NCBI RefSeq assembly: GCF_054482525.1
Contig: NZ_CM137006.1
DNA length: 64,000 nucleotides
Strand: one strand, 5' to 3'
Each line of letters begins with the position of its first letter. The stretch's first letter is position 1. Position numbers and translations under genes: made by a program. Of the stretch, positions 3,381 to 57,024 are shown piece after piece. The notes under the pieces were generated by a model. It saw only the letters and a program-made list of their open reading frames with translations. It was not told where the DNA came from and made no database searches.

Positions 3381-3536
3381 TACAAGTCTCAGAAATTTGT
3401 TGCTTCTACGGCAGGACTACCGGGAAGTGATGCGCATCACGATAAACCAATCGCAGCTGATTTCAAGTGCGAGGTGTGTCACACCTCGCCGGGTGGTTAG
3501 CATGATAACAAAAAAACAAGTTAATGCACTAGTTCT

Positions 3537-4370
3537 CTAGTACATTCGACGGCTAAGGCCCATGATATCGAGGATCTTGGTGGCAATCTCTTCTACCGAA
3601 TAATTGGTACTGTTAATCCACGGGATCTGATTTTTACGGTACAAGGCTTCTACTTCCGCGACTTCCATCCTGCACTGACGAAGCGAGGCATAGCGACTGT
3701 TCTCCCGACGTTCTTCGCGAATCGCCGCCAGACGTTCCGGGTCGATAGTCAGGCCGAACAATTTATGCTGAAGCGGTTTGAGCGACGCGGGTAGCACCAG
3801 ATTATCCATATCGTCGGCAATAAAGGGGTAGTTTGCCGCGCGGATACCAAATTGCATTGCCAGATACAGACTGGTGGGGGTTTTACCACAGCGAGAAACG
3901 CCGAGCAGGATCACCTGAGCCTGGTCCAGATTGCGTAACGAAATGCCATCATCGTGGGCGAGGGTGTAATCAATCGCAGCAATGCGCGCATCATATTTAT
4001 TGAGATTATTAGGGTTAAGGCCATGGGTACGATGAGCAATCGGCGTGGGATCCAGTTTCATCTCTTGTTGTAGCGGGGCAACCAGCGCCTGAACGATATC
4101 CTGGCAAAAGCCTTCACTTTGCAAGATGATGGCGCGAATCTCCGGCAACACGATGGAGTAGAAGACCAGCGGGCGCACACCTGTCTGGTGATAAATTGCG
4201 TCAATCTGATCCTTCACTGCCCGTGCACGGCTCTCATTTTCGACAAACGGCAGCGTAATGCTGCTGATAGTGACGGGAAATTGTGACATTACTGCGTGTC
4301 CTAATACCTCCGCAGTTATTGCCGTACCATCAGAAATATAAAAAACGTGGCGATCAACAGCATTATCCAT
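3537..4370 (-). CDS. ppsR: PEP synthase regulatory protein (bifunctional kinase/pyrophosphorylase) PpsR/YdiA, 277 aa
   Basis: 277-aa ORF; divergent from ppsA as in K-12. Confidence 0.92.
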
Positions 4371-4600
4371 TTTGTTCTTCCCGTGATGCAGACATAATTC
4401 TATGAAAGCATAAATTAAAAACGCACAGAAGCGTAGAATGTTATGTCTGGTTTATAAAATGAACCTTCAATTTTATTATTTATGAAAACAGCATTTCATT
4501 TTTATGGTTTCGTTTATACCGATGGTTTATGTGGAAATTGTCGAATAGAGCAGGTTTGCGCAACGCTGGGATCAGTCTTAAAAAGTAAAAAAATATATTT

Positions 4601-4616
4601 GCTTGAACGATTCACC
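4601..4616. promoter_or_regulatory. Candidate Cra (FruR) operator upstream of ppsA
   Basis: gcttgaacgattcacc resembles the Cra half-palindrome TGAA-CG-ATTCA, ~90 bp upstream of the ppsA start; ppsA is a known Cra-activated gene. Confidence 0.35.
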
Positions 4617-4702
4617 GTTTTTTTCATCCGGTTAAATATGCAAAGATAAATGCGCAGAAATGTGTTTCTCAAACCGTTCATTTATCACAAAAGGATTGTT
4701 CG

Positions 4703-20843: not shown

Positions 20844-21200
20844 TTAACAAAGGCGCTCCAGATCGTGTGCATATAATTCAGCGGCTACCGATTGATAGAT
20901 CTTCCAGTCAATAAAATTGCCATCAGGGTAGACACGTTGAAACGCGGTTAAGTCGGGGAAAAAACGCATGGTGTTGTTGCCGATGCGGTTATTTATTTTC
21001 TCTATGATGGCATGAAGATGTTTTTTTCGTTGCTGTCGCATAGCCAACAGTTGCTCGACCACACGATCAGGAATGGCGCATTTGCCATTTTCCCACTGAC
21101 GCCAGCTTTCATTGTCACCGGTCTGGGCAATCCAGGTCGCGCATTCATCAATAGTCATAGCAAAAATATGGCGAAGAGCCTGGAGTTCATAAGCGTTCAT
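20844..21200 (-). CDS. ydiL: Uncharacterised protein YdiL, 118 aa
   Basis: Internal start MNAYELQALRHIF gives 118 aa; this is the gene next to rprA in K-12. Confidence 0.8.
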   Translation of the reverse strand: MNAYELQALRHIFAMTIDECATWIAQTGDNESWRQWENGKCAIPDRVVEQLLAMRQQRKKHLHAIIEKINNRIGNNTMRFFPDLTAFQRVYPDGNFIDWKIYQSVAAELYAHDLERLC

Positions 21201-21337
21201 CGTGTAATGGCTGCATGAAATAAACAATAAAATATAAATAACATTATCAGCCTGCCGACGGCTTGAAGAGAGTCACAGTATCTTGTGCAACATTATTGGA
21301 AAGCGTGAGGGGCGAGGTAGCGAAGCGGAAAAATGTT

Positions 21338-21407
21338 AAAAAAAAGCCCATCGTGGGAGATGGGCAAAGACTACACACAGCAATTCGTTGTTTCACTCAG
21401 GGGATTT
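21338..21407. repeat. Left attachment-site direct repeat (duplicate of the rprA 3' end and terminator, 70 bp)
   Basis: Identical to 32979-33048: aaaaaaaagcccatcgtgggagatgggcaaagactacacacagcaattcgttgtttcactcaggggattt. Confidence 0.9.
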
Positions 21408-21424
21408 AAGTCATTGATTGATTT

Positions 21425-22054
21425 ATGGGTATGCGGTTTTTCGGCATAAACCAAATTAAGCAAGGCTTGAAAATGGACACACAAATTGCACACATATCGC
21501 ACACAAATAAAAAGGGGTATGTATGGCGCAAGCGTTATGAAAAACGCACGATTGAAATCATCCTACGCACCCGTGATAAATCAATTGCCATAAAAAGAGC
21601 GGCATCAATAACAATTCGCTATATGGAATTAAAATCACTTGACGTTCCATTTAAAGCAATGCTGGAAATGTTAAAAAAGTTTCGTGATGGTCTGATTACG
21701 TCACATGACATTGAGCGCTTAAGGTCGATTGCGATAGCTTCACAGGAAGCTCCACACGCCGCTGTAACCGCTTCGCCTATACAAAGTGTTGGCTATGATG
21801 TCAAAACCGCTCAGAAAGCCGCACAGGGGCATTCCCTTGGCGATGCTCAAAAAGTGTACTTTGGCGCCAACACCGAATGGAAAGAAAAAACCATCAAGGC
21901 TTATTCTGGTTGTATCGACCGCTTTATTTTATGGTGCGCTAATAAAAATATTCATACCGTGGAAGAAATAACGAAAGAGCATGTGATTTCATTTAAATCC
22001 AGCATGGATGAAGAAAAATTAGCCTCCATGACTAAATTTCGCATAATAATATGA
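21425..22054 (+). pseudogene. Tyrosine-integrase-like N-terminal fragment (core-binding/SAM-like region only, catalytic domain missing)
   Basis: 209-aa ORF; the segment KTIKAYSGCIDRFILWCANKNIHTVEEITKEHVISF resembles an integrase core-binding domain; no R..HxxR..Y catalytic region follows; sits next to the att repeat. Confidence 0.4.
21477..21509. repeat. Three tandem ~11-bp repeats (acacacaaatt / gcacacatatc / gcacacaaata), candidate integrase arm-type sites, left end
   Basis: Direct tandem repeats ~70 bp inside the left att repeat; a matching triplet lies ~70 bp inside the right repeat. Confidence 0.5.
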
Positions 22055-22362
22055 TTCGGGTTAGCATAACCAATACTTTTATTAAAGCCTATGTATGCAC
22101 CAATTTCTTTATACTTTAACTTAGTGAAATCTGAAATAATACTCAGTGGCTGCAATACGTTATGTCCATTGTGCGCCCCTTCATTAGCGCAAAATCCTGT
22201 ATTTGCAAACTGACCTTTATCACGCCAGATGAATCTATCAACGCCGCCACATACAGGACATGGTGTATGTTCATTTGGTTTAATATCAATTCCAAAATCA
22301 TTCATATGCACCAATGGATTCTTTTTAATATAATTATTCAAATCAGTAAAGAAATTAGCCAT
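21952..22362 (-). pseudogene. DNA primase zinc-ribbon domain fragment (Toprim and downstream domains absent)
   Basis: Motif HTPCPVCGGVDRFIWRD typical of primase Zn-ribbons; ORF stops soon after; its 3' end overlaps the convergent integrase fragment. Confidence 0.45.
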
Positions 22363-22681
22363 TATATTTGCTCCCGTATCGCCTTGCTGGATGCTTTGCA
22401 AAGAAATCAACGATATCTTGTTTGCGATACCAGATATAACCGTCTAATTCATGATGAATTTCTTGCGGAAATTCTTTAGGGTTAAAGCGTTTGGCGGCAT
22501 AAAACATTGGTTTAGTAACACCAGATAAAGCAATTGCATCATTGCCACACACAAGCCCTGTAAGTTGCACTTTCTGCGATTGTTCTTTTATCTGTGCCGC
22601 GATTAGCCTTTTATTCTCATTAACGTATTTTTCAATCTGTAGCTTACGCATTTTTTCGCGCATGTAATTTATATCGGTCAT
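22355..22681 (-). CDS. AlpA/Xis-like small DNA-binding protein, 108 aa
   Basis: C-terminal region FYAAKRFNPKEFPQE...YIWYRKQDIVDFF resembles the AlpA-family FPK...W..R..DI..W pattern. Confidence 0.45.
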   Translation of the reverse strand: MTDINYMREKMRKLQIEKYVNENKRLIAAQIKEQSQKVQLTGLVCGNDAIALSGVTKPMFYAAKRFNPKEFPQEIHHELDGYIWYRKQDIVDFFAKHPARRYGSKYNG

Positions 22682-22697
22682 TTTAGTATCCTATATA

Positions 22698-24200
22698 TTA
22701 AGTCATTATCTGTGCTGGTGGGGTAATGATATGAATTATCCCTCGATTATTCATAATGAATCTACATCGTTCAAGCCCTGTAATTGCTCGCTTTATATTA
22801 TTTGGCTGCATTTTATACTCAGTTTTTAATGCCTTCGTTAAATCGGATTCATGTACACAGCCATCAGCACTAAATTCCATTAACTGTATTATCATTTCTA
22901 AAACTCGTTCTTGTGCTGGTGCATTTTTCTTTTTTAACTCGCTCATATATGAGTCGTAAGCGAGAGTATTATTACGCGCAGCATTTTGAGTAAAATTAAC
23001 TCCTGCTTCATATGATTCTGCATTTACAGCGTTTTGCATTAATTGCTTATTTTGCTGTTGCGTTGTTAGTGGTTGCCGCTGTTGCGTGTGCATTTGCGCA
23101 TAATCATTTATCGGTGATTGCTGCATGATAAATGGTTCATCATTAGCTTGTTTGCGTTCTATTTTTCCTGCTGCAATTACTGGAGTTGGCCTATCAATAA
23201 ATACCAACGTCTTAGTATTGGCGTTTACCTGATAACCTTTTGCATTTTCTTCGGGATAATCGCATAATTCATTATTAATATCATGTAATTCACAGACGGT
23301 AATTCCGTTATCCGCTGTGCATAAATCAAATTGCATCACTGGTAATTTTGCAGCGCTACGGTTTTTTTCGATAGTGAGTGATACGGATAACCCAAAATCA
23401 TTACCCTGCATTTGCTCTAGTTTAATGACTGTATCAGAGTCATTTTTAAGGGTAATGGCTCCTTTCATACCTTTAGCCGCATCTTTGCCGCCGTGGTGAA
23501 CCATCAAGACAAAAGAATTTGTTTCTACTGCAATTCTTTTCAAAATCGAAATCAGCTTACGCATTGCAATAGCATCATTTTCATCAGGATTTTCCATATC
23601 CAAAATGGTTTTTCCATCAATGCTTTTTTTTGTGTAGTATGCCAAAAATGAAGAAAGCGTATCAAAACAAATGATGCCGCCTTTGTTATTGGTGATTTTA
23701 TTTACATCATTTATTATTCGATTCTGTATTTCTTTATCAAATAAGTTTATTTGTGGTGACAAGATGTGCATTCTGTCATTTTTAACGCCACTATTAAACT
23801 TATTAGACCACGCTGTATTTCGATCTTTGATTTCAACGCCTGTTTCACCATCAAAATAAAAAGCATGGCATTCTTTAGCAACTCGCAAACCAGCCCACGG
23901 TTTACCCTGTGCAACTCTGTTTAAAAGAGATAATGCCGCAAATGATTTGCCTGTGTTGGATTCACCATAAAGGAAGCCGACCTGTTTTCGGTTAAATAGA
24001 TTTTCAATTACAGGGCGTAACCGCTTTTCTGATTGCAATTGAATTTCAGCTAATTCAATTGCACACAATTCATCATTTATACCATCATATTCAGACCACT
24101 CACCGTAGTTGGCGGGTGCGTAATAATCAATCGCGAGAGTGTAATAATAATCAGGAATAGCAGACCAATCAATAAACATTCCTGTGCACATATCATTCAC
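22698..24200 (-). CDS. RecA-like (RepA/AAA_25-type) replication ATPase, 500 aa
   Basis: Walker A GESNTGKS near residue 80; hydrophobic strand plus HHGGKD Walker-B-like region; Q/N-rich linker and C-terminal domain; flanked by AlpA-like genes and iterons. Confidence 0.55.
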   Translation of the reverse strand: MNDMCTGMFIDWSAIPDYYYTLAIDYYAPANYGEWSEYDGINDELCAIELAEIQLQSEKRLRPVIENLFNRKQVGFLYGESNTGKSFAALSLLNRVAQGKPWAGLRVAKECHAFYFDGETGVEIKDRNTAWSNKFNSGVKNDRMHILSPQINLFDKEIQNRIINDVNKITNNKGGIICFDTLSSFLAYYTKKSIDGKTILDMENPDENDAIAMRKLISILKRIAVETNSFVLMVHHGGKDAAKGMKGAITLKNDSDTVIKLEQMQGNDFGLSVSLTIEKNRSAAKLPVMQFDLCTADNGITVCELHDINNELCDYPEENAKGYQVNANTKTLVFIDRPTPVIAAGKIERKQANDEPFIMQQSPINDYAQMHTQQRQPLTTQQQNKQLMQNAVNAESYEAGVNFTQNAARNNTLAYDSYMSELKKKNAPAQERVLEMIIQLMEFSADGCVHESDLTKALKTEYKMQPNNIKRAITGLERCRFIMNNRGIIHIITPPAQIMT

Positions 24201-24247
24201 CGTAATTTGGGTATTTAATTAAGAAAAATTCAATTACTTCTTCTTTT

Positions 24248-24400
24248 TTATATAGATGCTTTGTTTTTTTTGTTTTTATCGCAAGTAACTAAATGCTCTT
24301 TTGGAAATTCTTTAGGGTTAAAACGTTTAGCCATATAAAAAGCGGTTGAGCCAATTTTAGCCAAAAGTTGTGCTTCACGAGGTGTAATTAAGTCGCTCAT
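24248..24400 (-). pseudogene. Second AlpA-like fragment (50 codons), partial duplicate of the 22355-22681 gene
   Basis: Translation MSDLITPREAQLLAKIGSTAFYMAKRFNPKEFPKEH... shares the FY-AKRFNPKEFP motif with the downstream AlpA-like gene; weak RBS; not in the ORF track (<60 aa). Confidence 0.3.
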
Positions 24401-24750
24401 GTAGGGTATCTCTTAGATGTATTCTGAGTGCGGTCATGGTAGGCGAGGGGAGGAATAGCGGCAAGCATTACCGGATATAGTAAGCACTACCAGCTAAAGT
24501 CTAACTAACTGTCAACAGATTGAGGCTAAAACCACTGTATGTAAATTCAATTTTAAAAATTAAAAATCATTCTGGCTTAACTAATTATGCTCAATTTAAA
24601 TTGAATCTGATAATAAAAAGAATCAATAAAATGGATTTAGTGATTTTTAGTTGGACGAAATCGTTCATTTTATGTGCATTGCTCGCTGGTGATAATTCAA
24701 CCAATCCATTCAACCTATTCGAATGGGTGGTGAATTTTTGACCGAATTAA

Positions 24751-24920
24751 ATTCACCTGAATATTCACCGAATGATTCACCTGAATCATTCAGCCCTTCA
24801 TTCACCACGAAACCCAGGCGCGGCGGGGCTTACAGGCCGATTCATTCACCTGAATATTCACCTGAATATTCACCTGAATTATTCAACCAAAAATTCACCT
24901 TCATATTCACTCATTCACCT
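24751..24920. repeat. Iteron array: two clusters of three 12-bp tandem repeats (ATTCACCTGAAT) plus degenerate copies
   Basis: Units at 24751, 24763, 24775 and at 24844, 24856, 24868 with further TTCACC copies; lies upstream of the Rep ATPase operon. Confidence 0.6.
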
Positions 24921-24957
24921 CTCTATAAATAAGCATTGGAATGCTTTTTATAGAGGT
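24921..24957. other. Long near-perfect inverted repeat (ctctataaataagcatt gg aatgctttttatagag), hairpin or operator
   Basis: About 16-bp arms with a 2-nt loop, T-run on one side; lies between the iterons and the ner-like gene. Confidence 0.4.
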
Positions 24958-25236
24958 TGATGAATGAAGGTCGTTCAAGTGAATGAACTGTGAGTTGGGT
25001 AAACCCCTAGGGGTTGGGGGTGTTGTCGATTTGTGGTAAATTCCTTCTGCCAGCGTGAAAAAGGCGCTGGTGGGGATTTGCAGCCCCAAACAAACAAAAC
25101 CATTGGCAAGGAATTGCCGATGCGCGTGCGCACGTCAGTTATGGCGGTCACGGCGAGGGAGTCGAAAGGCTCGCCAGTTTTGTTTGTTTGCTGGTACTGC
25201 AAACCTCGTCGTGATCGTCACCACGGGGATGCATGT

Positions 25237-25488
25237 ATGCAGGAAACAGACTGGCACAAAGCGGATATTCTTGCCTCTTTAAAGAAAAAGAAAATCAGCA
25301 TGGCGGGATTATCCCGTGAACATGGTTTATCAAGTAGCACGTTGCTAAATGCACTTAGTAGAGAATGGCCTAGAGGCGAATTAATTATTGCTAATGCAAT
25401 TGGTGTGTCACCTCAAGAAATATGGCCTTCTAGGTATTTTGAAAAAGATGGCTCTCCAAAAAATCGTGTGATTCGTAAACCTGTTTAA
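25237..25488 (+). CDS. Ner/Nlp (SfsB)-family HTH DNA-binding regulator, ~83 aa
   Basis: MQETDWHKADILASLKKKKISMAGLSREHGLSSSTLLNALSREWPRGELIIANAIGVSPQEIWPSRY closely resembles Ner/Nlp; I prefer the internal ATG at 25237 over the 151-aa ORF start. Confidence 0.6.
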   Translation: MQETDWHKADILASLKKKKISMAGLSREHGLSSSTLLNALSREWPRGELIIANAIGVSPQEIWPSRYFEKDGSPKNRVIRKPV

Positions 25489-25705
25489 ATAAGTCAATGC
25501 GTCTCTGATTAAAAGGGGCGCATTTTTGTTTTTACTGACTTGTTGCAATGTGGGATATGTTGCGCACGTGTGTGCGATAGTTGTTAATTGTTTTTTGTAC
25601 TAGTTAACAAATACGAATTTTCTGAGGGTGCTATTTTGGGTTTTAGCTGCGGCTTCGCCTTGCTGCCCTTCGGGCTGGTGGTGCAAGAAGAATGTTTGAA
25701 AACTT

Positions 25706-25751
25706 CCTTTTCTTTGCTTCACCAGCCCCGTAGGGGCGTGAGCGTAGCGAA
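25706..25751. repeat. 46-bp direct repeat, copy 1 (ccttttctttgcttcaccagccccgtaggggcgtgagcgtagcgaa)
   Basis: Identical to 29912-29957; contains a gcccc-gta-ggggc hairpin; ~100 bp upstream of the 383-aa gene. Confidence 0.85.
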
Positions 25752-25849
25752 CCTAATCACTTTGATTTTGACACATATCGGTTCTATCATTTTCAGGAAA
25801 ATCATCATAGAATTATATAAAACATACGATTTTTAAGGTGAATTTTTAA

Positions 25850-27001
25850 ATGCACGAGAAAGCGCAAACAAAAATAAAAGATACTATTAGAGAAATACTA
25901 ATCACTCCAGCAATCGCTTTTACTGGTCGTGCAGGTCATTTTGATTTTTCATTATATGAAGTTTTAGCAAATGAGCTTAACAAAAGAAAGATAAAGTTTA
26001 AAATTGATAAATTATCATGTTGGATTATTTTTGATGGCGCAAAAAAACATTACTTTCAAGATAAATCAATTACTGACGCACAAGCGATAAATGATTTTGT
26101 GGATACGTTATGTAGTATTTACTGTGAAACACCTATGGATTACTCCATCGATTTTCACTTTAGAAATTTAAAAATCGATATCAACCCGATTGATTATGAG
26201 TTTGTTTCAATTAGAGCGGGTGAGGATATTGGTATTGGTTTGTTCGCTGAAAAAGAAAAGTATGCGATTGCGAGCATTAAAAAGAATGGCTATCTTTCAG
26301 GTGGTTATCCTAGCTCATTTATAAAATCGATTTTGCAAGATTTGAAAATCTTCATTTTTTTGATTAAAAGCATTAATTTGATTAAGACAGGAAAAACCAA
26401 TTTAGCATCCACGTTATTTCAATCGATGTCCGGTCATGCTGACACAATTAAGATTGATTGCGTTAATGTTAAATATCCTTGGATGAATAGCAGTGTCCAT
26501 ATTTCAGAGTCGGTAGGGAAATTTTTACACAACTTTATCTTCAATTATGAATTTGAAGAAGGCTACATTATAGAAAAAATAGATCATTCGCTTCAGCTAA
26601 TGAATGCAATAGTAAAAGATGAGTCAAAAGAAGCCTTGCGTATCAAGGCTGCAATTGATTGGTTGGTGCAATCTGAAATCACTGATGATGAAACCATGTC
26701 TTTTATTCAAATTTGCATGGGGCTTGAATCAATTTTTGGTGATGATGATTATGAGGGTGGCCTAACAAACATACTATCTGATAGATGCGCCTACTTAATA
26801 GGGAATAAAATTAAAGAGAGGAGATTTATAAAGGACACATTTAAAAAAATATATCAAGTTAGGTCAAAGATAGTGCATGGCGTAAGAAATCATTTATCAG
26901 ATGATGAATTATATTTTAGGCATTTAGCATATTCATATTTAGAGCGTTCTATTCTAAAAGAAATTCAAAATTTAGACCTGCAATCCCATCAGGCGACGTG
27001 A
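25850..27001 (+). CDS. Hypothetical protein with C-terminal HEPN-like R-x4-H-G motif, 383 aa
   Basis: AGGTGA RBS 8 nt upstream; C-terminal ...KKIYQVRSKIVHGVRNH matches the R-x4-6-H signature of HEPN RNases; strongly AT-rich. Confidence 0.4.
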   Translation: MHEKAQTKIKDTIREILITPAIAFTGRAGHFDFSLYEVLANELNKRKIKFKIDKLSCWIIFDGAKKHYFQDKSITDAQAINDFVDTLCSIYCETPMDYSIDFHFRNLKIDINPIDYEFVSIRAGEDIGIGLFAEKEKYAIASIKKNGYLSGGYPSSFIKSILQDLKIFIFLIKSINLIKTGKTNLASTLFQSMSGHADTIKIDCVNVKYPWMNSSVHISESVGKFLHNFIFNYEFEEGYIIEKIDHSLQLMNAIVKDESKEALRIKAAIDWLVQSEITDDETMSFIQICMGLESIFGDDDYEGGLTNILSDRCAYLIGNKIKERRFIKDTFKKIYQVRSKIVHGVRNHLSDDELYFRHLAYSYLERSILKEIQNLDLQSHQAT

Positions 27002-27236
27002 AGCTTGTGCGCTTCATTATGGGGCTAGCCGCCATCAGGCAAGGCGATTGCATGTCTTTGCGCTTCGTCGCCTCCTGATGCGTTCTGTGAAGATGTCGAT
27101 CATTTAGTGAGCGCGGCGGATGTTGCTGATGGATAGTGTGGATGCAACTGAACCATACCGCGAAAAGTGGCAGGATTGCGCCGGAATCGTACCGCTAGCA
27201 GGTGTTGAGTGTAAGAAGTAGTGATTGGGTGAAATG

Positions 27237-27275
27237 AAGATAGAAGGCCGCATAGAGGCATACAACTAGCCTTAT
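27237..27275 (-). terminator. Hairpin downstream of the lipoprotein gene (candidate terminator)
   Basis: ccgcata...tatgcgg stem followed, on the minus strand, by a T-rich tract. Confidence 0.35.
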
Positions 27276-27288
27276 GCGGTTGGCTGGT

Positions 27289-27732
27289 TCAGCACTGGTA
27301 AAAGTTGGCGAGGTGTGGAATATGGCTGGTGGTGGTTTCGAAAGCCTTGAGGCGTCCATTTTTATCTTTTTTCAAGTAGAGCATTTTTAGTGCTGGTGGA
27401 AATACTGAATCCATAATTCCATAAACTCCCACATTTTCGTTTTCTTCTTTAAGCATTCCCCAATATTGATAACCATTTAATGCGCTATCATCAATGCCCG
27501 TTCCAACGCGCTTAATGTGGGCAAGATATCGGCCTTTTATCGTAAAGCTAAATGATTCATCACGTTCATTTGTGCAAGTGTAAAATCCATCATCGCTTTC
27601 ATTTATAACTTCAGATGCTTCACGATTTAATGAGTACTTGTCTAAGTTGTTTATGATGTCACTTCGCTGTGCGCATCCAGTCAAATTTAGAATGGTAAAA
27701 ATTAGTACAGAAGATGCAAGATATTTGTTCAT
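27289..27732 (-). CDS. Predicted lipoprotein, ~147 aa
   Basis: N-terminus MNKYLASSVLIFTILNLTGC carries a signal peptide with lipobox LTGC; internal ATG at 27732 preferred. Confidence 0.55.
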   Translation of the reverse strand: MNKYLASSVLIFTILNLTGCAQRSDIINNLDKYSLNREASEVINESDDGFYTCTNERDESFSFTIKGRYLAHIKRVGTGIDDSALNGYQYWGMLKEENENVGVYGIMDSVFPPALKMLYLKKDKNGRLKAFETTTSHIPHLANFYQC

Positions 27733-27818
27733 TTTGATTATCCATATGAAAAGCAAGGTACTTAGATTAAATTACCCTGCTTAAGCAGTAATTAGCGGTT
27801 CCGTTAATAGAGGGTAGA

Positions 27819-28178
27819 TTATTTGTTAATTTGTTTTTTAGTGTGTGAGATAAAATTTCTAAGTAAATCTTTTTCAATTACAATTTCACATTTTAGGTTT
27901 TGGCTATCGACCGCATCAATTCTATCAAACCAAAACATTAATTCCTGGCTTGCATCGCATTTACGTTTGAATTTAATTGCCCTGCCGAATTTTTCACTTA
28001 AAGAATCATCATCACATAAAAAATAAATTTTATTATTAATGGTGATTTGAATTAAATATGTCTTCCTCGTTAGGTAATCTAACCTTTCGTTAGCTTTCAG
28101 TAAGTTAGCTTCAGCTTGTTTGATGCGTATAAGAGCATCCTCTTTGCTTAAAGGGGATGTATTGACAGACTTGATCAT
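27819..28178 (-). CDS. Hypothetical protein, 119 aa, upstream partner of the lipoprotein
   Basis: AAGGA RBS 8 nt upstream of the ATG; co-oriented with the lipoprotein gene, 86-bp gap. Confidence 0.5.
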   Translation of the reverse strand: MIKSVNTSPLSKEDALIRIKQAEANLLKANERLDYLTRKTYLIQITINNKIYFLCDDDSLSEKFGRAIKFKRKCDASQELMFWFDRIDAVDSQNLKCEIVIEKDLLRNFISHTKKQINK

Positions 28179-28287
28179 AATTTAATCCTTTGGTTAAGAT
28201 TCATCAAAAATATGCCATAAATAGCCTTGAAGGTTGTGTGGAATACATATTATGATAGCTTCATCTAATCAGCAAGGGGAATAATAG

Positions 28288-28443
28288 ATGCCTTCTAAAC
28301 GTGTTATATGCTCACTTGATGAGCAAGAGTTAGATATTCTCGAAAAATATAAATTACATTATAAAAATATGCATGGCGTAAAATTAAACAGAACGGCAAT
28401 TATCAAAATGTTGATTAGTCGTCTATCAAAAGAAATTCAATAA
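28288..28443 (+). CDS. Ribbon-helix-helix (Arc/CopG-like) small DNA-binding protein, 51 aa
   Basis: MPSKRVICSLDEQELDILEKYKLHYKNMHGVKLNRTAIIKMLISRLSKEIQ shows a beta-strand/helix/helix pattern; GGGGA RBS; divergent from the 27819-28178 operon; below ORF-track length cutoff. Confidence 0.45.
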   Translation: MPSKRVICSLDEQELDILEKYKLHYKNMHGVKLNRTAIIKMLISRLSKEIQ

Positions 28444-28495
28444 TAATTCTAATTACCAATTAATTTAAACTTCACATAATTAAAGAGGCAACTCT

Positions 28496-28810
28496 ATGCA
28501 CACTCTTTTTTCTAAATTTAAAAACAGGAAAATTAAAATGTATCAACCACGTTATAAAAGCAGAATGATTGACGATAATGAATATAATCAGGTGCTTCAA
28601 TCGAGAATGCAAAATCTTTTAAATCAATATAATAATGAGGTTTCAAACTTAACCCGCATTGGTGTTACAAATTTGGGTTTCGGCCGATGGGATAATGGAG
28701 AGAGCAAAATCAATAACCACGTTAATAAAGTAAGTGAGACTTTGGAAAAGATGCAATCTACGCAAGCCTTGATTGATGCTCTTGCAAATGAAATTACACA
28801 AACTAATTAA
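28496..28810 (+). CDS. Hypothetical protein, 104 aa
   Basis: AAGAGG RBS 8 nt upstream; no recognisable motif. Confidence 0.45.
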   Translation: MHTLFSKFKNRKIKMYQPRYKSRMIDDNEYNQVLQSRMQNLLNQYNNEVSNLTRIGVTNLGFGRWDNGESKINNHVNKVSETLEKMQSTQALIDALANEITQTN

Positions 28811-28894
28811 TCGAATGGGGGATGCTTTAAATGGTAATCGCAATCATGGTTGTAATGTTTTGGGCTTTCCTGATTCTTAAAGAGGAAATGAAAT

Positions 28895-29179
28895 ATGGTT
28901 AAATTTGGAGTGTTTTACCATCATGCATGGGGTGATGGTAAAAAGGAAATCCCGCCACCTGATTTAAATTACATCCGAACCGATCCACATAAAAATAATG
29001 AAATTGCTTTAGATGTTTTTGATTCAAGAATGGACGCACAAAAACGCGCTGATTTACTAAATTCACGCATGGCAAAAAATCAAACTGGTCAGCATTATGT
29101 TGCGCCAACAACGCAAGAAACCAAAACGGCTCAAAAGCGCTTTAAGTTTCCTTGTACTAGCATTTATGGGTGGAAATGA
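28895..29179 (+). CDS. Hypothetical protein, 94 aa (paralog family A)
   Basis: AGAGGA RBS; N-terminus MVKFGVFYHHAWGDG is similar to the next gene's N-terminus. Confidence 0.45.
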   Translation: MVKFGVFYHHAWGDGKKEIPPPDLNYIRTDPHKNNEIALDVFDSRMDAQKRADLLNSRMAKNQTGQHYVAPTTQETKTAQKRFKFPCTSIYGWK

Positions 29180-29181
29180 AA

Positions 29182-29556
29182 ATGAGTAAACAATTCGGTG
29201 TTTTCTTTTGGCGAAAAGGTGACGCTATTACCGATATCCCGTCAGATAAAAATGTTGCAAATCGCGGAGTAAAGCCTAAGCGCATTTTTTCAGATTATAT
29301 TGATGGAATGCGATATAAAGATAAAATGAATGCAACAATTCCAGCGGCGCAAAAAGGTAAATATGAATATGTATTAGCGGAAATTGTTGAACCAGACCCG
29401 AACAATACAAAGGTGTTGTTTAAATCTGGAAATTTAACAGAAGCATTAAGGGCGAAGCGACAAACAACCGAACAAATCAACCGAAATAAAATTGATGCAA
29501 TGATTAAAGAAGCCGCACACGATTACCTTTACACTATTACAGGAATGGAAAAATGA
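29182..29556 (+). CDS. Hypothetical protein, ~124 aa (paralog family A)
   Basis: N-terminus MSKQFGVFFWRKGDA parallels the upstream gene; GGTGGA RBS; start at 29182 preferred over 29170. Confidence 0.45.
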   Translation: MSKQFGVFFWRKGDAITDIPSDKNVANRGVKPKRIFSDYIDGMRYKDKMNATIPAAQKGKYEYVLAEIVEPDPNNTKVLFKSGNLTEALRAKRQTTEQINRNKIDAMIKEAAHDYLYTITGMEK

Positions 29557-29852
29557 TTATTGACGAGCGATTTATTAAATGGTCAATGGTGCTGGTGGAG
29601 GCCGGAAAGCCATCACCCAGCCTCGCGGGGCTTTATAAAGGAAACACTAAAGGATTAATCTTTTATAAAACACGTGAATTGGCATCAAATGCAGCCACTA
29701 AACGGAATGAGCAATTAGCAGGAACTAAATCAACCAGCCGATTTAAAATCATTAAATTGCATGACGCAGAAGCACAACAGAAACATGATTTTCAGTTAAA
29801 ACAGGAACGCCAGCGCCGCGATGCACGCCATATGCGCCGATTTGGTTTCTAA
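29553..29852 (+). CDS. Hypothetical basic protein, 99 aa
   Basis: 4-bp ATGA overlap with the upstream gene suggests translational coupling; Lys/Arg-rich C-terminus. Confidence 0.4.
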   Translation: MIIDERFIKWSMVLVEAGKPSPSLAGLYKGNTKGLIFYKTRELASNAATKRNEQLAGTKSTSRFKIIKLHDAEAQQKHDFQLKQERQRRDARHMRRFGF

Positions 29853-29911
29853 ATATAACTCAATAACTCAACCAATGGTGATGTTAAAGAATAAGGTGGC
29901 CTTAAATTTCA

Positions 29912-29957
29912 CCTTTTCTTTGCTTCACCAGCCCCGTAGGGGCGTGAGCGTAGCGAA
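29912..29957. repeat. 46-bp direct repeat, copy 2
   Basis: Identical to 25706-25751; 37 bp upstream of the tape-measure-like gene. Confidence 0.85.
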
Positions 29958-29993
29958 ATAAGTAACATTAATATCAAATCAGAGGTAAATAAA

Positions 29994-31982
29994 ATGGCAG
30001 GTGAAAATGCTCAATTGGGCTTTTCCGTCGATACATCGGAAGTGGAAACAGCATCAAAAAGGCTTAATGAATTAGCTAAATCAGCGCAAGGGGCGGCTGA
30101 TTCGGCTGGCAAATTATCAGATTCATTTGAGGAAAGTATGAAGGGTGTTAATTCATCAATTACTTCCAATCATCAGGCTATGCGCGAATTAACGGTAATG
30201 ATGCACGAAGCAATGTCTGGTAATTGGTCGCGCTTGCGTGGTTCTGCAATGATTATGGGCGGCGCATTGGGATTTGGTGGATTAACTAGCGGTGCGGTAG
30301 TTGGTGGAATTACGCTTGTTTCGGAAGGCATTGAATCGCTAATTGAAGGAATGCGAGAAGCTCAAAAAGCAGAAACTGAATTAAATAATTCTGCTGTAAT
30401 TACAGCAGATGTAAGCCTTTTAAATAGTGATTATGTTGATTCACTTACTATTGGTTATGAGAAATTAGGCTATTCAGCAACACAAGCAAAAGGCATGATT
30501 GCAGCGTTAAGTAATGCGGGTATGTTTGGTGATGAATTTAGTGTTGCAGGTAAACAAATTGCCGCACTATCTAAAGCGTTAGGCGGTAATTCAGACGAAC
30601 AAAAAAAATTAGCTGGTCAATTTGGTGGCTTGTATTCTGACCCGCTAGGACACGTTAACGAATTTTTCCAAGTAACAAACGGATGGATTACCAAAACCGA
30701 ACAAAACCGAATTAATGCGGCTGAACAATCGCATAATTCAGCACAAGCTGAAATGGCTATGCAAGAAGCGCTATTAGATGTTTATAAGCGTCAAACCGAT
30801 ATGCTACAGCTTAAAGCCTATTTGGAAACTAACGCCGCTACATATTCAGCCTTTCAGACGCGCGAACAATTCGGCAGCGCATGGGGTAAGGGCGAAAAAG
30901 AAAAGGCAGACGCATTTATCAAGCAATATGACGAGCGCCAGCAATCATTTAATCAGGGCGTTGAAAAGCTAAAAGGAAGCATTCACGAAACAGGACGCCA
31001 GATAAGGGAAAATGTAGAAGAATTTAATAAAGGAATGCATCCCCATAAAGTGCATACACACCACGGATTAACAGCAATTGAGAAAGCAGCTAAACAATTG
31101 GTGACCTACCAAACCCAAATTAAACAGGCTGGTTTGCAATTTGACCAGCAAATTAATTCAATTGGTGATTCAGTAAATAATGCGTGGAGTAATAAATTAT
31201 ACTCTTATTCAATGTCTTCTGACCAGAATGATTTTGCAAACCGAATTGAACAAATCAATGAACAATTCGACCGTATGCGCGAAAATGTAGACCGTTTGGC
31301 GCTGCAACATCATAAATCAATTGGTTCAAAAGAATATGTTGAAATGTTCCAAAAAATCGAATTAGGGCGCAAAAACGTATTGGCTGAAAACGTTGCTGGA
31401 TTTAATGAAATGGAGTCATTGCAGCATTCAGCGCTGGCGGGAATGGATGAGGGATGGATTAAATACCAGAAGCAGGTTAATGATGTTGCAAGCCAATCAG
31501 AGAAAGTTTTTGATACGGCTGTTGAGGGAATGACAAATTCATTAACTGATTTCTTTACAACTGGTGAGGCTGGTTGGACTAATTTTGTAAAATCAATCGC
31601 AACAATCACTGAAAAATACATGGTTCAAGATTGGATTGTTGAGCCGCTAGCAGGATTAGTAAAAGGGGGGATTAGCTCGCTATTTTCATCAAATCCATTG
31701 AGTTCAACGGCTAACACTTTTGCCGTTCCCGATATTCCAAAATTGGGCGCAACTCATTTAGGAGGCGGTCTAGGTTCGACCGCACCAGTTATCAATATCA
31801 CCATTAATGACAATGGCAACAAAGGCGGCGTTGATAGCAATGTTAGCGGCACAACAGGGCAAGTACAAAAAATGGGGGCGGCGCTAGATAAATTCCTGCA
31901 AAACTATATCAAAGAGCAAAACGTAAAATCCAACCGTCAGGGCGGGTTAAACAAAACAATGGGGAACTGGTCGACAAGATAA
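29994..31982 (+). CDS. Phage tail tape-measure protein homolog (lambda gpH-like), 662 aa, orphan
   Basis: Glycine-rich hydrophobic segment MIMGGALGFGGLTSGAVVGGITLV near the N-terminus, long helical middle, C-terminal FDTAVEGMTNSLTDFFTTGEAGWTNFVKSI and ...VINITINDNG matching, from memory, the lambda H C-terminal region; AGAGGT RBS. Confidence 0.6.
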   Translation: MAGENAQLGFSVDTSEVETASKRLNELAKSAQGAADSAGKLSDSFEESMKGVNSSITSNHQAMRELTVMMHEAMSGNWSRLRGSAMIMGGALGFGGLTSGAVVGGITLVSEGIESLIEGMREAQKAETELNNSAVITADVSLLNSDYVDSLTIGYEKLGYSATQAKGMIAALSNAGMFGDEFSVAGKQIAALSKALGGNSDEQKKLAGQFGGLYSDPLGHVNEFFQVTNGWITKTEQNRINAAEQSHNSAQAEMAMQEALLDVYKRQTDMLQLKAYLETNAATYSAFQTREQFGSAWGKGEKEKADAFIKQYDERQQSFNQGVEKLKGSIHETGRQIRENVEEFNKGMHPHKVHTHHGLTAIEKAAKQLVTYQTQIKQAGLQFDQQINSIGDSVNNAWSNKLYSYSMSSDQNDFANRIEQINEQFDRMRENVDRLALQHHKSIGSKEYVEMFQKIELGRKNVLAENVAGFNEMESLQHSALAGMDEGWIKYQKQVNDVASQSEKVFDTAVEGMTNSLTDFFTTGEAGWTNFVKSIATITEKYMVQDWIVEPLAGLVKGGISSLFSSNPLSSTANTFAVPDIPKLGATHLGGGLGSTAPVINITINDNGNKGGVDSNVSGTTGQVQKMGAALDKFLQNYIKEQNVKSNRQGGLNKTMGNWSTR

Positions 31983-32043
31983 TATTATGTTGCTTAGTAA
32001 GTCTAAACTTTACGCCCTAATTAGGGCGTTTTATTTAAAAAAG

Positions 32044-32661
32044 TTAATTTGCTGTATTTTCTCTCATCTTTCTAAGTTCTGGCAATACTTTCTTATAGAA
32101 TTTCGTAGTGGAATCAGCGCAGTAGTTTTGCAGATACTTATAGTTTTCTTCAAATTTAGGGAGATCTTTAGCTACCGTCAATTGCTTTGGTAAAGTTCCG
32201 GTAGCATCATCGGTTATATCAAATGTTATTGAATTATGTTTTCGATCTTCATTAACTTTTTTTAAAGTGGCAACAATAGGGCTTTTATCCATAGAACCAT
32301 CTATTAGTTGGCGAACTTGAAACTTCCTTGGGATTATAAAATTAATTACTGACGGAGGTTCACTATTTAATGTTATATTCCAAGTTATTGGCATAGCATC
32401 ACATAAACCTTCAGATATTATTTCACCATCAATTGAACCATCAGAATTGGCGATAAATTGTATTATAACAAGTGGTTGATCTTTATTTAAGCCAAGATCT
32501 CCACTATTTATTATATATTCAGCGTCTGTCGACCATTTGCCTGTTAGAAATTCTTTTTGATAAAGTGCTTCATTTATTTCACCTCTATATGGTAAATATA
32601 GACCTATAGCACCAATTGCAACACCTAATACAGTGCATATTGTTGTTATTCGTCCACTCAT
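32044..32661 (-). CDS. Membrane-anchored hypothetical protein, 205 aa
   Basis: N-terminal hydrophobic helix ITTICTVLGVAIGAIGLYLPY; AT-rich; at the island edge. Confidence 0.45.
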   Translation of the reverse strand: MSGRITTICTVLGVAIGAIGLYLPYRGEINEALYQKEFLTGKWSTDAEYIINSGDLGLNKDQPLVIIQFIANSDGSIDGEIISEGLCDAMPITWNITLNSEPPSVINFIIPRKFQVRQLIDGSMDKSPIVATLKKVNEDRKHNSITFDITDDATGTLPKQLTVAKDLPKFEENYKYLQNYCADSTTKFYKKVLPELRKMRENTAN

Positions 32662-32875
32662 ATCACACTCGTTATCTTATCCTTGTTGTAGTTAAGCATT
32701 TTATTTTATTTTTTTATTGTGAAAATGGCTAGTTTTAGTTGGGTCTTGCGCTGAATCTAACGAGTGCTTACCCCGTGAAGTGATTTATGATTAAAGTTCG
32801 TTTTGTTTTTGGTTAAAAAATGAACATGTGAGTGCTTTGGAAAATTTCTGTAACACTCACCTGATTTACGCTGGT

Positions 32876-32909
32876 AGCACACAAATGGTACACAAACGGC
32901 ACACAGGTA
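32876..32909. repeat. Three tandem ~11-bp repeats (agcacacaaatgg / tacacaaacgg / cacacaggtaa), candidate integrase arm-type sites, right end
   Basis: Mirrors the left-end triplet; same orientation; ~70 bp inside the right att repeat. Confidence 0.5.
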
Positions 32910-32978
32910 ATCGCATACCTTTAATGACCTAATTTCTTCAAGCCCCTGCATTGCTGCGTTTGTCGTGATTTTCGGCAT

Positions 32979-33048
32979 AAAAAAAAGCCCATCGTGGGAG
33001 ATGGGCAAAGACTACACACAGCAATTCGTTGTTTCACTCAGGGGATTT
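32979..33048. repeat. Right attachment-site direct repeat (3' 70 nt of intact rprA)
   Basis: Identical to 21338-21407. Confidence 0.9.
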
Positions 33049-33084
33049 CCATGCTTATAAATCAATATGTTGATTTATAACCGT
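32979..33084 (-). ncRNA. rprA: Small regulatory RNA RprA (activator of rpoS translation)
   Basis: Minus-strand sequence ACGGTTATAAATCAACATATTGATTTATAAGCATGGAAATCCCCTGAGTGAAACAACGAATTGCTGTGTGTAGTCTTTGCCCATCTCCCACGATGGGCTTTTTTTT matches RprA from memory, including the intrinsic terminator; lies between ydiK and ydiL. Confidence 0.85.
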
Positions 33085-33269
33085 GAGCTAATAGTAGGCA
33101 TACGGACTTTTTGCGTCGATCAGATTCGTCTCATTAGTTTAAAAACTGTAAAGAATTTGCGACAGGTACTACCAGCTGAATGGCGGTAAGCAGGAAAATA
33201 TGGGGAAGAGCAAGCAAATATCAATTAGCGGTGGTTAACAATCAGGCGGCAGAGCCGCCTGATGAGAAA

Positions 33270-34382
33270 TTACTTATTCGGTTTCTCTATTTCGCCAAGT
33301 TCTTCGAGAACTTCTTCCGGTTGGTCAGTCGGCGGTGGGACTTCTTCCACCCACGCGGCAAAAAGACGCCAGGAAACGGCTAACAGAACCGGACCAATAA
33401 ACAGGCCGATCATCCCGAAAGCAATCAAACCACCAATAACGCCAGAGAGGATCAGGATCAGCGGTAAATCGGCACCCATGCGAATTAACATTGGGCGGAT
33501 GACGTTATCCAGCGTGCCGACCACACCGCTCCACACTAACAGTACCGTTCCCCAGGTGGTATCACCGGTCCAGTAGAGCCAGATAATCGCCGGAATCAGT
33601 ACCGGCAATGGTCCAAGCTGGACAAGGCAGGAGAGGATCATTAACACCGTGAGCAAAGTTGCATAAGGTACGCCGGATACGGCGAGGCCGATACCGCCAA
33701 GCACTGCCTGTACTAACGCTGTCACCACAACACCCAGCGCCACCGCGCGGATAGCTTGTGCCGCTAGCAGCACGGCGGCATCTCCACGAACGCCTGCCAG
33801 ACGGGTTGCAAAATGGCGAATGCCTTGTGCCACCTGTTCACCGCGCCAGTACAGCAGGGCACTGAAGAGAAGCATCAGCGCACAATGCACCATAAAGCGC
33901 CCGATATGCGCCGCTTGCCCAACGAACCAGGTGGTGGTGGTGCCAATATAAGGACGGACTTTTGCCATGATCGCCGTCCCCCCCATATCCAGCAAGTTGT
34001 GCCAGCCTGCATACAGCTTCGCGCCAATCACCGGAATGGTATTAAGCCACGCCAGATCGGGTAACGTCATGTCACCGCTGGAAATGGCTTTAATTAGCGG
34101 GCCGCTGCCGTCGACGATACTGTTAACCAGCAAGGCAATAGGGATGATAAACACCATCACTAATAACAGCGTCATCACCAGAACGGCGAGAGAGCGGCGA
34201 CCAAACATGATCTTTTGCAAACGTAACAATACCGGCCAGGTGGCGATGACCACCGTACCAGCCCATGCAAAGCCGAGAATAAAGGGTTGTACAATCCACA
34301 GACATGCCACAATCATGATGGCTAAAAAGAGCACCGAAAGCAGAATTTGTGCGACATCCCTGGGCTGACGAACATTTACCAT
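33270..34382 (-). CDS. ydiK: AI-2E family (UPF0118) inner-membrane transporter YdiK, 370 aa
   Basis: 370-aa multi-TM ORF; upstream neighbour of rprA as in K-12. Confidence 0.88.
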   Translation of the reverse strand: MVNVRQPRDVAQILLSVLFLAIMIVACLWIVQPFILGFAWAGTVVIATWPVLLRLQKIMFGRRSLAVLVMTLLLVMVFIIPIALLVNSIVDGSGPLIKAISSGDMTLPDLAWLNTIPVIGAKLYAGWHNLLDMGGTAIMAKVRPYIGTTTTWFVGQAAHIGRFMVHCALMLLFSALLYWRGEQVAQGIRHFATRLAGVRGDAAVLLAAQAIRAVALGVVVTALVQAVLGGIGLAVSGVPYATLLTVLMILSCLVQLGPLPVLIPAIIWLYWTGDTTWGTVLLVWSGVVGTLDNVIRPMLIRMGADLPLILILSGVIGGLIAFGMIGLFIGPVLLAVSWRLFAAWVEEVPPPTDQPEEVLEELGEIEKPNK

Positions 34383-38522: not shown

Positions 38523-38747
38523 TCCTGACTTAATGCCGCAATTTCGCCAAATCGACCTGGATTAACCTCCGTCCAGGTTCGATGACCTTCTTAATACTGC
38601 TTATCTACCCGCCTGATATTGTTCAAAAATAATACTAATCGCAGTTTGTGTTAAAACGGCGGGTTAGCTTTATGAGATTATTCTTATCGCCCCTTCAAGA
38701 GCTAAGCCACTGAGAGTGCCGGAGATAAGCGCCGGATGGGGTAGAAA

Positions 38748-38788
38748 CCCTTAAGCCTGTGTCGCACAGACTTAAGGGTTTTCTTATT
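38748..38788 (+). terminator. Rho-independent terminator-like hairpin in the ydiH-sufA intergenic region
   Basis: cccttaagcctgtg...cacagacttaaggg stem followed by ttttcttattt. Confidence 0.5.
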
Positions 38789-56452: not shown

Positions 56453-56758
56453 TCAGGCGAGTTTTGCCTCATTGATTTGACTCAGTGGCTCATTGACATC
56501 GAAAACTTTGGCGACAACTTCCTCAACGCCGAGATTTTTCAGTCGGGCAGTATGTTTTTCCAGATAGGCAAGGGCGCTTTTTTCATCAGTGAAAAGGTAG
56601 ATCCCACCGGCTTCGTGGTTCTTTTCACTTTCTGTCCATACCTTCCACAGAAAACCAGGTTCCTGATTAATCGACTCAGCAAGTGGTTTAAGCTGCTCAG
56701 CCATTGCGTCGCCAAATGGGCCATTAAAAGCAAAATGAAGTTGTAACAAAGTTGCCAT
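56453..56758 (-). CDS. ydhR: Putative monooxygenase-like protein YdhR, 101 aa
   Basis: 101-aa ORF; synteny. Confidence 0.85.
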
Positions 56759-56866
56759 AGCGATTCTCCTTCTGATAACGCATACGAAGACAGTGTAAAT
56801 CTTTTAACGTATTGGATACAGAGAAGAAACAGAGGGAAAAAAGGAGAAGACCAGATTAAGAAAATC

Positions 56867-56943
56867 TGGTGCGTCCGAGTGGACTCGAACCACCGACCCC
56901 CACCATGTCAAGGTGGTGCTCTAACCAACTGAGCTACGGACGC
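56867..56943 (-). tRNA. valV: tRNA-Val (GAC)
   Basis: Reverse complement reads GCGTCCGTAGCTCAGTTGGTTAGAGCACCACCTTGACATGGTGGGGGTCGGTGGTTCGAGTCCACTCGGACGCACCA, a cloverleaf with anticodon GAC and encoded CCA. Confidence 0.95.
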
Positions 56944-56947
56944 AGGA

Positions 56948-57024
56948 TGGTGCGTTCAATTGGACTCGAACCAACGACCCCCACCATGTCAAGGTGGTGC
57001 TCTAACCAACTGAGCTATGAACGC
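56948..57024 (-). tRNA. valW: tRNA-Val (GAC), second tandem copy
   Basis: Reverse complement reads GCGTTCATAGCTCAGTTGGTTAGAGCACCACCTTGACATGGTGGGGGTCGTTGGTTCGAGTCCAATTGAACGCACCA. Confidence 0.95.

Follow-up and report, generated by a model that had tools for sequence, protein, structure and literature searches.

Elements that integrate by means of a tyrosine recombinase use tRNA and tmRNA genes as attachment sites, well-known examples being P4 at leuX and CP4-57 at ssrA. At such sites the target is the 3' part of a small and highly conserved RNA gene, and the element brings its own version of the 3' segment that it displaces, so that the gene is rebuilt upon integration. A direct repeat of the 3' end of the gene consequently marks both ends of the element, the crossover is likely to fall in a stem-loop whose arms are symmetric, and related integrases on different elements share one and the same site. 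We find the same features at rprA, the gene of the regulatory sRNA RprA, and by analogy we take the mechanism to be of this classical tRNA/tmRNA-gene type. There are also differences. RprA is an Hfq-dependent regulatory sRNA, and the stem-loop in question is not an anticodon or T arm but its rho-independent terminator. In the rprA island the integrase is at the end distal to the intact gene, whereas the orientation in P4/leuX and CP4-57/ssrA is the opposite. Finally, unlike the tRNA/tmRNA sites, the satellite version of the rprA site has approximately 39 nt of identity beyond what its 32-nt core needs.

The nearest sRNA precedent is found in pneumococci, where the prophages phiOXC141 and phiRMV8 integrate in ccnC (csRNA3) and where attL, attR and attP all carry sRNA-like sequence (PMC9764711). 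In both cases a mobile element sits inside an sRNA gene. The rebuilt pneumococcal sRNA is altered, however, with a new 3' loop and a change in competence (PMC9764711), while the rebuilt RprA described below is base for base the allele of the empty site, and hence no change of allele is expected. A second non-tRNA RNA gene recently described as attB is ffs, encoding 4.5S RNA, in Enterococcus faecalis, into which phiEf11 integrates with the segment of identity lying within the RNA gene (PMC12540744). It differs from rprA in being a housekeeping SRP RNA used by another phage in another host. The RprA Rfam model was among those scanned by Phage_Finder v2.5 in that study, which reported no rprA site (PMC12540744). 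In the literature that we searched, including the text and supplements of the TIGER paper, we found no mention of rprA as an integration site or as the target of an island or satellite.

We analysed a stretch of 64,000 nucleotides of E. coli DNA, referred to as the window, to which all positions refer unless a locus is named (Table 1). Its full-length rprA matches Rfam family RF00034 with 118.8 bits (gathering score 70) over model positions 1-108, no non-canonical pairs being flagged, and has the three stem-loops and the ydiK-ydiL intergenic context that go with membership of this family. An earlier note on this DNA had placed the gene at 32979-33084, which agrees with the Rfam match except for the last two bases after the U-run. 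The 71 nt from RprA nucleotide 37 to its 3' end, terminator hairpin included, are present twice as an exact direct repeat with the copies 11,641 bp apart. This bears out the repeat that had been noted at 21338-21407, "11.6 kb" away and beside ydiL. A 22-mer taken from the block has two exact occurrences in the window against 0.00 expected in shuffles of the window, so the repeat is not due to chance. Between the two copies the GC content is 32-42%, compared to approximately 52% in the ydiK flank.

Table 1. Features of the window and related loci discussed in the text. Positions refer to the window unless preceded by a locus handle.
Feature	Position	Strand	Remarks
ydiL	20844-21200	minus	left flanking gene
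Left copy of the 71-bp block	21337-21407		beside ydiL; without rprA promoter or 5' part
47-nt processed RprA (RprAproc) in left copy	21338-21384	minus	RNase E site GA↓AUU at 21385/21384; native equivalent 32979-33025
Terminator hairpin of left copy	21346-21365	minus	GCCCATC / loop / GATGGGC, then T8
Truncated tyrosine integrase	21473-22054	plus	193 aa; SAM-like N-terminal domain retained, catalytic domain lost; relatives 401 aa with PF00589
Three 11-bp-phased RCACACAWAT repeats, integrase-side arm	21477-21508	plus	candidate arm-type integrase sites
Replication operon, toward left rprA copy	21952-24400	minus	AlpA-like 50-aa ORF, AAA_25/helicase-type ATPase, 108-aa ORF, primase remnant; PHROG primase and helicase-primase matches, Pfam labels of relatives
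Primase remnant	21952-22362	minus	part of replication operon
AAA_25/helicase-type ATPase	22698-24191	minus	part of replication operon
ATTCACCTGAAT iterons	24751-24911		repeat family in window
C4/CI-type antisense immunity RNA	25137-25225	plus	RF01695 (clan CL00128), 65.8 bits, gathering score 45
Ner/SfsB-like HTH gene	25237-25488		PHROG 769, NF007670
662-aa protein with lambda tape-measure C-terminal domain	29994-31982	plus	in all island variants; followed by terminator-like hairpin 32012-32029
205-aa cargo gene	32044-32661	minus	no family match; variable slot beside intact rprA
Matching phased CACACAAAT-like repeats, other arm	32877-32908	plus	one exact, two degenerate; conserved in FREC5 and S10
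Intact rprA (RprA sRNA)	32977-33084	minus	RF00034; promoter side toward ydiK, untouched; equals empty-site allele
Right copy of the 71-bp att identity block	32978-33048		exact repeat; equal boundaries in FREC5 and S10 islands
RprA terminator hairpin	32987-33006	minus	inside 32-nt core common to all rprA-targeting relatives; proposed crossover region
ydiK	33270-34382	minus	right flanking gene
rydB	38689-38749
tRNA genes	56870-56943, 56951-57024	minus
RprAproc-like module in vB_EcoM-606R2	L009 1501-1546
RprAproc-like module in Erwinia phage Ea9-2	L010 1201-1244
Further RprAproc-like module loci	L014, L016, L017, L018-L137, L140-L219

The rprA site is rarely occupied in E. coli: ydiL-rprA-ydiK is uninterrupted in 5402 of 5426 complete genomes, and extra copies of the 71-nt block turned up in only 7 of 5424 E. 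coli records. In 5405 of these 5424 records the block has an identity of 99% or more and thus offers a very stable target. When the empty site was aligned to both junctions of the island, we observed a clean conversion of B-O-B' to B-O-P' and P-O-B'. The junctions and the boundaries of the 71-bp block are identical in three island variants, namely that of the window and two diverged relatives in FREC5 and S10. The sequence of 21200-33300 is furthermore approximately 100% identical to that of E. coli PCN033, SCU-102 and 19KM1776. We also considered whether the split ydiL-ydiK site of approximately 22 E. coli genomes is due to an rprA insertion in every case. This was rejected, given that a duplicate of the 71-nt block is present in only 7 genomes; as the prophage-type integrase is absent from the complete E. 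coli genome set as well, the remaining split sites must be other events.

The islands of FREC5 and S10 encode an intact tyrosine recombinase of 401 aa (PF00589) approximately 65 nt from the left copy, and the full-length integrase is likewise found in the Salmonella, Citrobacter and Enterobacter islands; the window retains its N-terminal part. Using protein database and contig look-ups, we found integrases of 47-100% identity adjoining a 3' fragment of rprA in members of five genera (E. coli, Salmonella, Citrobacter, Enterobacter and Klebsiella). In islands of Salmonella (L005) and Citrobacter freundii (L006) the integrase is 78% identical and the rprA fragment is 70 nt long, while in an island of Enterobacter ludwigii (L007) these values are 81% and 41 nt of exact match, after which the sequence diverges. 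A Klebsiella aerogenes prophage with SU10-type portal/adaptor genes (L008) has an integrase of 53% identity and a 32-nt fragment, as have two E. coli prophages with the same type of genes (L011 and L012), with integrase identities of 58% and 49%, respectively. The distance between integrase and fragment is 65-135 nt in all of these (Salmonella, Citrobacter, E. ludwigii, K. aerogenes and the two E. coli prophages). A clade of integrases with 37% identity, on the other hand, is located at another locus and without an rprA fragment, which together with the occurrence in five genera indicates that the rprA 3' end is the target of one integrase clade. Its carriers comprise satellite-like islands of about 12-15 kb as well as prophages with SU10-type portal genes, meaning that at least two kinds of element carry the clade. 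A peptide-pattern scan of species-representative genomes gave no confirmed relatives of the FREC5 integrase. A tblastn search with the integrase against 50,697 phage records gave no match either, and accordingly no sequenced phage among them supplies an attP.

Taken together, the repeat is the 3' segment of the target and stands at both ends of the element, there is an empty site with the same boundaries, and homologous integrases are found at the same target. The proposal in the earlier note that rprA serves as the attachment site is thereby well supported, by the uninterrupted site in 5402 of 5426 genomes, by identical junctions in three variants and by homologous integrases in five genera. 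From these sequence comparisons we consider it highly probable that the element in the window is the integration scar of a tyrosine recombinase with the 3' end of rprA as attB, and that it is satellite-like, immobilised and of little or no effect on RprA.

Where within the gene recombination takes place can be narrowed down by comparing the relatives. The insertion had been placed exactly at the end of the RprA terminator. This does not hold, since the duplicated block takes in the last 71 nt of the gene, which puts the crossover inside rprA and makes part of the 3' end of the working gene element DNA. What all the rprA-targeting relatives share is only 32 nt, as seen in L008, L011 and L012, consisting of a T, A8, the hairpin GCCCATC-GTGGGA-GATGGGC and AAA. 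In the E. ludwigii copy, a 30-mer from the diverged part was present in 0 of 100,044 species-representative genomes (an exact 30-mer search, which strain-level variants of Enterobacter rprA could escape). The diverged middle would thus be derived from the element rather than native, with the crossover in the first 41 nt. We conclude that the crossover is probably in the terminator-proximal 32-41 nt, and probably in the terminator hairpin itself. A possible alternative for the islands of E. coli, Salmonella and Citrobacter is an exchange close to the opposite border of the 71-nt block, in the loop of RprA hairpin 2. The two copies of the block in FREC5 differ by a single base, which we considered as a marker of the exact crossover and then dropped, as it fits a crossover on either side.

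With the crossover in the terminator-proximal 32-41 nt, the extreme 3' end of the working rprA would be supplied by the element, and the left copy would be mostly element DNA, from approximately nucleotide 37 to the 5' half of the terminator. The two arms of the terminator stem (GCCCATC/GATGGGC), 7 bp each around a 6-nt loop, would present the recombinase with an inverted-repeat geometry. Tyrosine recombinases reportedly use the corresponding geometry of tRNA stem-loops, as Williams is said to have described in 2002. If attP includes a version of the rprA 3' end that belongs to the element, an exchange within the gene would leave a full and unchanged rprA on one side of the island and a promoterless 3' fragment on the other. 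Both arms of the island also contain phased CACACAAAT repeats, which are shared with its relatives and are candidate arm-type sites for the integrase. When the 64-kb window was scanned, every zero-mismatch match to RCACACAWAT fell within the two arms.

In the public annotation, the att-site fragment appears as a gene. RefSeq/PGAP labels it as a second "antisense sRNA RprA" of 97-121 nt in PCN033, FREC5 and S10, and the PCN033 entry (PPECC33_RS25640) is 121 nt long with an rprA portion of 71 nt only. Could the second match then be an independent, paralogous rprA gene? The Rfam match at 21336-21456 scores 81.4 bits, above the gathering score of 70, and spans model positions 1-108, and the label rprA is applied in all three strains. 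The homology is confined to 71 nt, however, and the score comes from this 3' part. In the 5' part the alignment has a 21-nt insertion and non-canonical pairs flagged in hairpin 2, what would be upstream sequence is the conserved integrase-side arm and the start of the integrase gene, and no promoter-like site was found there. The match thus lacks the homologous 5' stem-loop, the hairpin 2 and the promoter of its own that a member of RF00034 would have, and we rejected it as a full second rprA; an independent paralogue is extremely improbable. The over-call in RefSeq arises because the covariance model aligns globally. As the earlier note had it, the second copy is promoterless, having neither the promoter nor the 5' part of rprA, and we continue to regard it as the far end of an integrated element.

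We then considered the consequences for native RprA. Neither in the gene nor in the 60 nt or more upstream of it is there any difference from the empty-site allele; the sequence departs from it only after the U-run, and the expectation that the sRNA and its terminator had been preserved is therefore correct. It had also been suggested that island promoters near the right end could read antisense into rprA, and that the duplicate could be made as a decoy if transcribed; such a decoy would titrate Hfq or RprA targets. The geometry would permit both in principle, the duplicate contains an Hfq-type terminator and the seed, and in the pneumococcal case antisense transcription initiated in the prophage was indeed observed to enter the sRNA gene at the att site (PMC9764711). 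In the region 31800-33300, on the other hand, all 8 of 8 promoter-like sites are on the minus strand, in a consensus scan that is weak evidence either way. The nearest plus-strand gene, encoding the tape-measure-like protein, stops at a terminator-like hairpin and is convergent with the minus-strand cargo gene. Together, these observations give the antisense idea no support in the sequence. For the duplicate, the consensus scan gave no promoter-like site between it and the integrase start, and thus a decoy made from a promoter directly upstream of it is not supported. Since in addition the RprA sequence and promoter are unaltered, we find a regulatory role of this kind quite improbable. An integration scar with a nil or small effect on RprA is what we expect, on the basis of sequence identity and weak consensus scans.

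The left copy deserves a closer look for another reason. The 3' region of RprA had been described in the earlier note as the stable processed form, in agreement with the literature: RNase E cleaves RprA at GA↓AUU (PMC5222698), RprAproc is the last 47 nt of the sRNA (PMC9262595), and it is stable and active on its own (PMC5222698; PMC9262595). The left copy retains both the cleavage site and the complete RprAproc. Its hairpin is the only minus-strand terminator-like site in 24200-21300, between the replication operon and ydiL. Compared to FREC5, the window has moreover suffered a deletion that brought the operon closer to the left rprA copy. Lost with it was the convergent int/GIY-YIG junction, which in FREC5 stands between operon and fragment. 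Given the intact cleavage site, the whole of RprAproc, the sole terminator and the nearer operon, read-through could yield real RprAproc instead of a decoy, and it is plausible that the duplicate can be transcribed only in this manner, as the 3' end of read-through from the minus-strand replication operon. The left copy would then be a conditional, Rcs-independent second source of genuine RprAproc, produced by predicted operon read-through, termination at the rprA-derived hairpin and an RNase E cut at GA↓AUU. A conserved RprAproc-like module in many phages (see below) would be in keeping with this. Promoter-like sites of the operon are, however, no more common than in shuffled sequence. The element-borne seed and RNase E region have diverged in the E. 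ludwigii island copy, which argues that the satellite family does not conserve an RprAproc function. Furthermore, RNase E was reported to use the 5' stem-loop of RprA for recognition (PMC6202311), a part which the fragment does not have. We therefore regard a second source of RprAproc as unlikely, and an att-site remnant as the better description of the left copy.

The decay of the island is itself informative. Relative to FREC5, the window lacks 1874 bp (1.9 kb), with the junction at 22036/22037 corresponding to a step from 2837 to 4712 in the FREC5 locus (L002). The deletion took away the integrase beyond approximately residue 189, together with the GIY-YIG gene and the larger part of the primase, and because of this loss RefSeq calls the remnant an "N-terminal SAM-like domain" protein. 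The truncation was not mentioned in the earlier note. With the catalytic domain gone, the island should be unable to excise unaided and should be fixed in place.

Related islands (window 21408-32977; L002, L003 and L005-L007) are present in E. coli, Salmonella, Citrobacter and Enterobacter. The genes of this family comprise an integrase, GIY-YIG, a Zn-ribbon/Toprim primase, an AAA_25 ATPase, a Ner/SfsB-like HTH gene and a HEPN-labelled protein (a label that in the window island comes from RefSeq only), along with iterons and a C4-type RNA. A protein of 660-710 aa with a lambda tape-measure C-terminal domain is conserved as well. The slot at 32044-32839, between the gene for the latter and rprA, holds the 205-aa protein in the window, is empty in FREC5 (L002) and contains a PIN-domain gene in S10 (L003). 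Within the replication operon, a 44-nt repeat (84% identical) at 22461-22504 and 24297-24340 corresponds to an ...AKRFNPKEFP... motif in the 108-aa and 50-aa ORFs, which look like two AlpA-like HTH paralogues, an assignment made for both by inspection of the motif by eye. The ATTCACCTGAAT iterons are the probable replication origin of the island. The C4/CI-type RNA scores above its gathering score and is located directly upstream of the Ner/SfsB-like gene, as is appropriate for this class. A 61-nt repeat (89% identical) with the hairpin CCCCGTAGGGG, at 25706-25766 and 29912-29972, precedes the HEPN-labelled and the tape-measure-like genes, and a third copy is found just after the integrase gene in FREC5 (L002 3499-3562); it could be a terminator or a regulatory site.

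PICIs and P4-like satellites carry an integrase, an AlpA-like regulator, primase/helicase replication genes and an origin, together with genes for hijacking a helper phage's particles. As a class of phage satellites they are the natural comparison for this island (PMC6092414; PMC10085698). The islands at rprA resemble them in size (approximately 12-15 kb), in having an integrase, AlpA-like small HTH ORFs, primase and helicase-type genes and an iteron origin, and in a P4/P1-like C4/CI-type RNA beside a repressor-like gene and a variable cargo slot. The gene set expected of a satellite (integrase, AlpA-type regulator, primase/replicase and origin within approximately 10-15 kb) is thus in place, the AlpA-type regulator by motif inspection. 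Unlike PICIs and P4, the island has no capsid, terminase (including small-terminase), scaffold or psu/sid/delta gene, or other hijacking gene, that we could recognise with PHROG, NCBIfam and PADLOC, and the same resources revealed no defence or hijacking family in the cargo and small ORFs. The sole virion-related gene, and the conserved large gene of the family, encodes the protein with the tape-measure C-terminal domain; the window copy is decayed. For want of recognisable capsid, terminase or psu/sid/delta genes, we do not file the island as a PICI or a P4-like satellite. Judging by gene content, the family looks like an undescribed satellite or mobilisable element.

A separate observation was made when rprA was compared with phage genomes by blastn. 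An exact 24-nt stretch, AATTGCTGTGTGTAGTCTTTGCCC, which comprises the RprAproc 5' end, the seed and the first half of the stem, is present in lytic N4-like Erwinia phages (Schitoviridae) and several temperate E. coli phages. In the phages the stretch is followed by a different and variable hairpin of their own and then a T-run, such that the module consists of the seed A-UUGCUGUGUGUAGUCUUUGCCC, a variable terminator hairpin and a U-run. Lambdoid phages LLS, Eeyore and Flotzy likewise have the module. The modules score only 40-50 bits with the Rfam RprA model and match no other Rfam family. Among the matches listed, more than 120 contigs of IMG/VR contain the 22-mer of the module, there being many compensatory variants of the hairpin, and a cI/LexA-type repressor gene lies approximately 1.2 kb upstream on the same strand in 74 of 120 module loci. 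We also drew a sample that is independent of the seed, from 446 relatives of a neighbouring nuclease gene in the temperate-phage group. A module could be recognised at 71 of these loci; the 22-mer is exact in 54 of them and differs at a single position in 16, and the seed columns are 98-99% conserved compared to 40-50% just upstream.

The modules were also considered as the attP of rprA-targeting phages, and rejected as such. They reside downstream of a cI-like repressor gene, within the immunity region, and not beside int, which argues against an attP; in LLS approximately 3 kb separate the module from int/xis and it is located a short way downstream of the repressor gene, in 606R2 it is in the immunity region, and it is also present in lytic Schitoviridae. 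A prophage with the module, which is unannotated there, is found in approximately 59 of 5426 E. coli genomes. We found no description of the module in the literature searched. A 48-nt, 95.8% match to the RprA 3' end (H144) is located at 31068-31115 of the 89,462-bp record NZ_JBRBPZ010000006.1 of E. coli CH468. Possibly it is among the three RprA-3'-like places that we counted on plasmids of E. coli, and the 89-kb record could be a phage-plasmid that carries an RprAproc-like module.

The modules are possibly phage-encoded mimics of RprAproc. That phage RNAs can enter the RprA regulon has a precedent in StxS, an sRNA of Shiga-toxin phage that acts on rpoS at the site used by RprA, DsrA and ArcZ (PMC7547250). 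StxS is a functional analogue without homology to RprA, unlike the phage modules, which share an exact stretch of 22-24 nt with RprAproc. A bolder reading would combine the modules with the island, such that mobile elements carry the RprA 3' module deliberately and the island copy is matured from the 3' end of the replication-operon transcript into active RprAproc, with no need of Rcs signalling and in parallel with the phage modules. If this were true, part of the RprA regulon would be reprogrammed by such elements in the course of lysogeny or infection. We regard it as a long shot, and hold to the island copy being an attachment-site fragment.

Lastly, the Rfam scan of the window gave a match to HPnc0260 (112 bits) at 56742-56905 on the plus strand, overlapping a tRNA on the opposite strand. 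The best-aligned 3' part of this match looks like a tRNA, and the match is therefore probably an artefact of the Rfam model.

In summary, with rprA a regulatory sRNA gene joins the few RNA genes other than tRNA genes that serve as attB, and a whole integrase clade, present on two kinds of element, makes use of it across Enterobacteriaceae. The second "rprA" in RefSeq is an att-site fragment and not a gene, and the native rprA should behave normally in carriers of the island. The one realistic route to an effect on RprA would be read-through into a copy in which the RNase E site and the complete RprAproc are retained. A conserved RprAproc-like seed, with a terminator to itself, is present in hundreds of phage contigs and in approximately 1% of complete E. 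coli genomes, a lead that is possibly worth more than the finding of rprA as an att site. If these modules are expressed sRNAs, phages would be tapping the RprA regulon.
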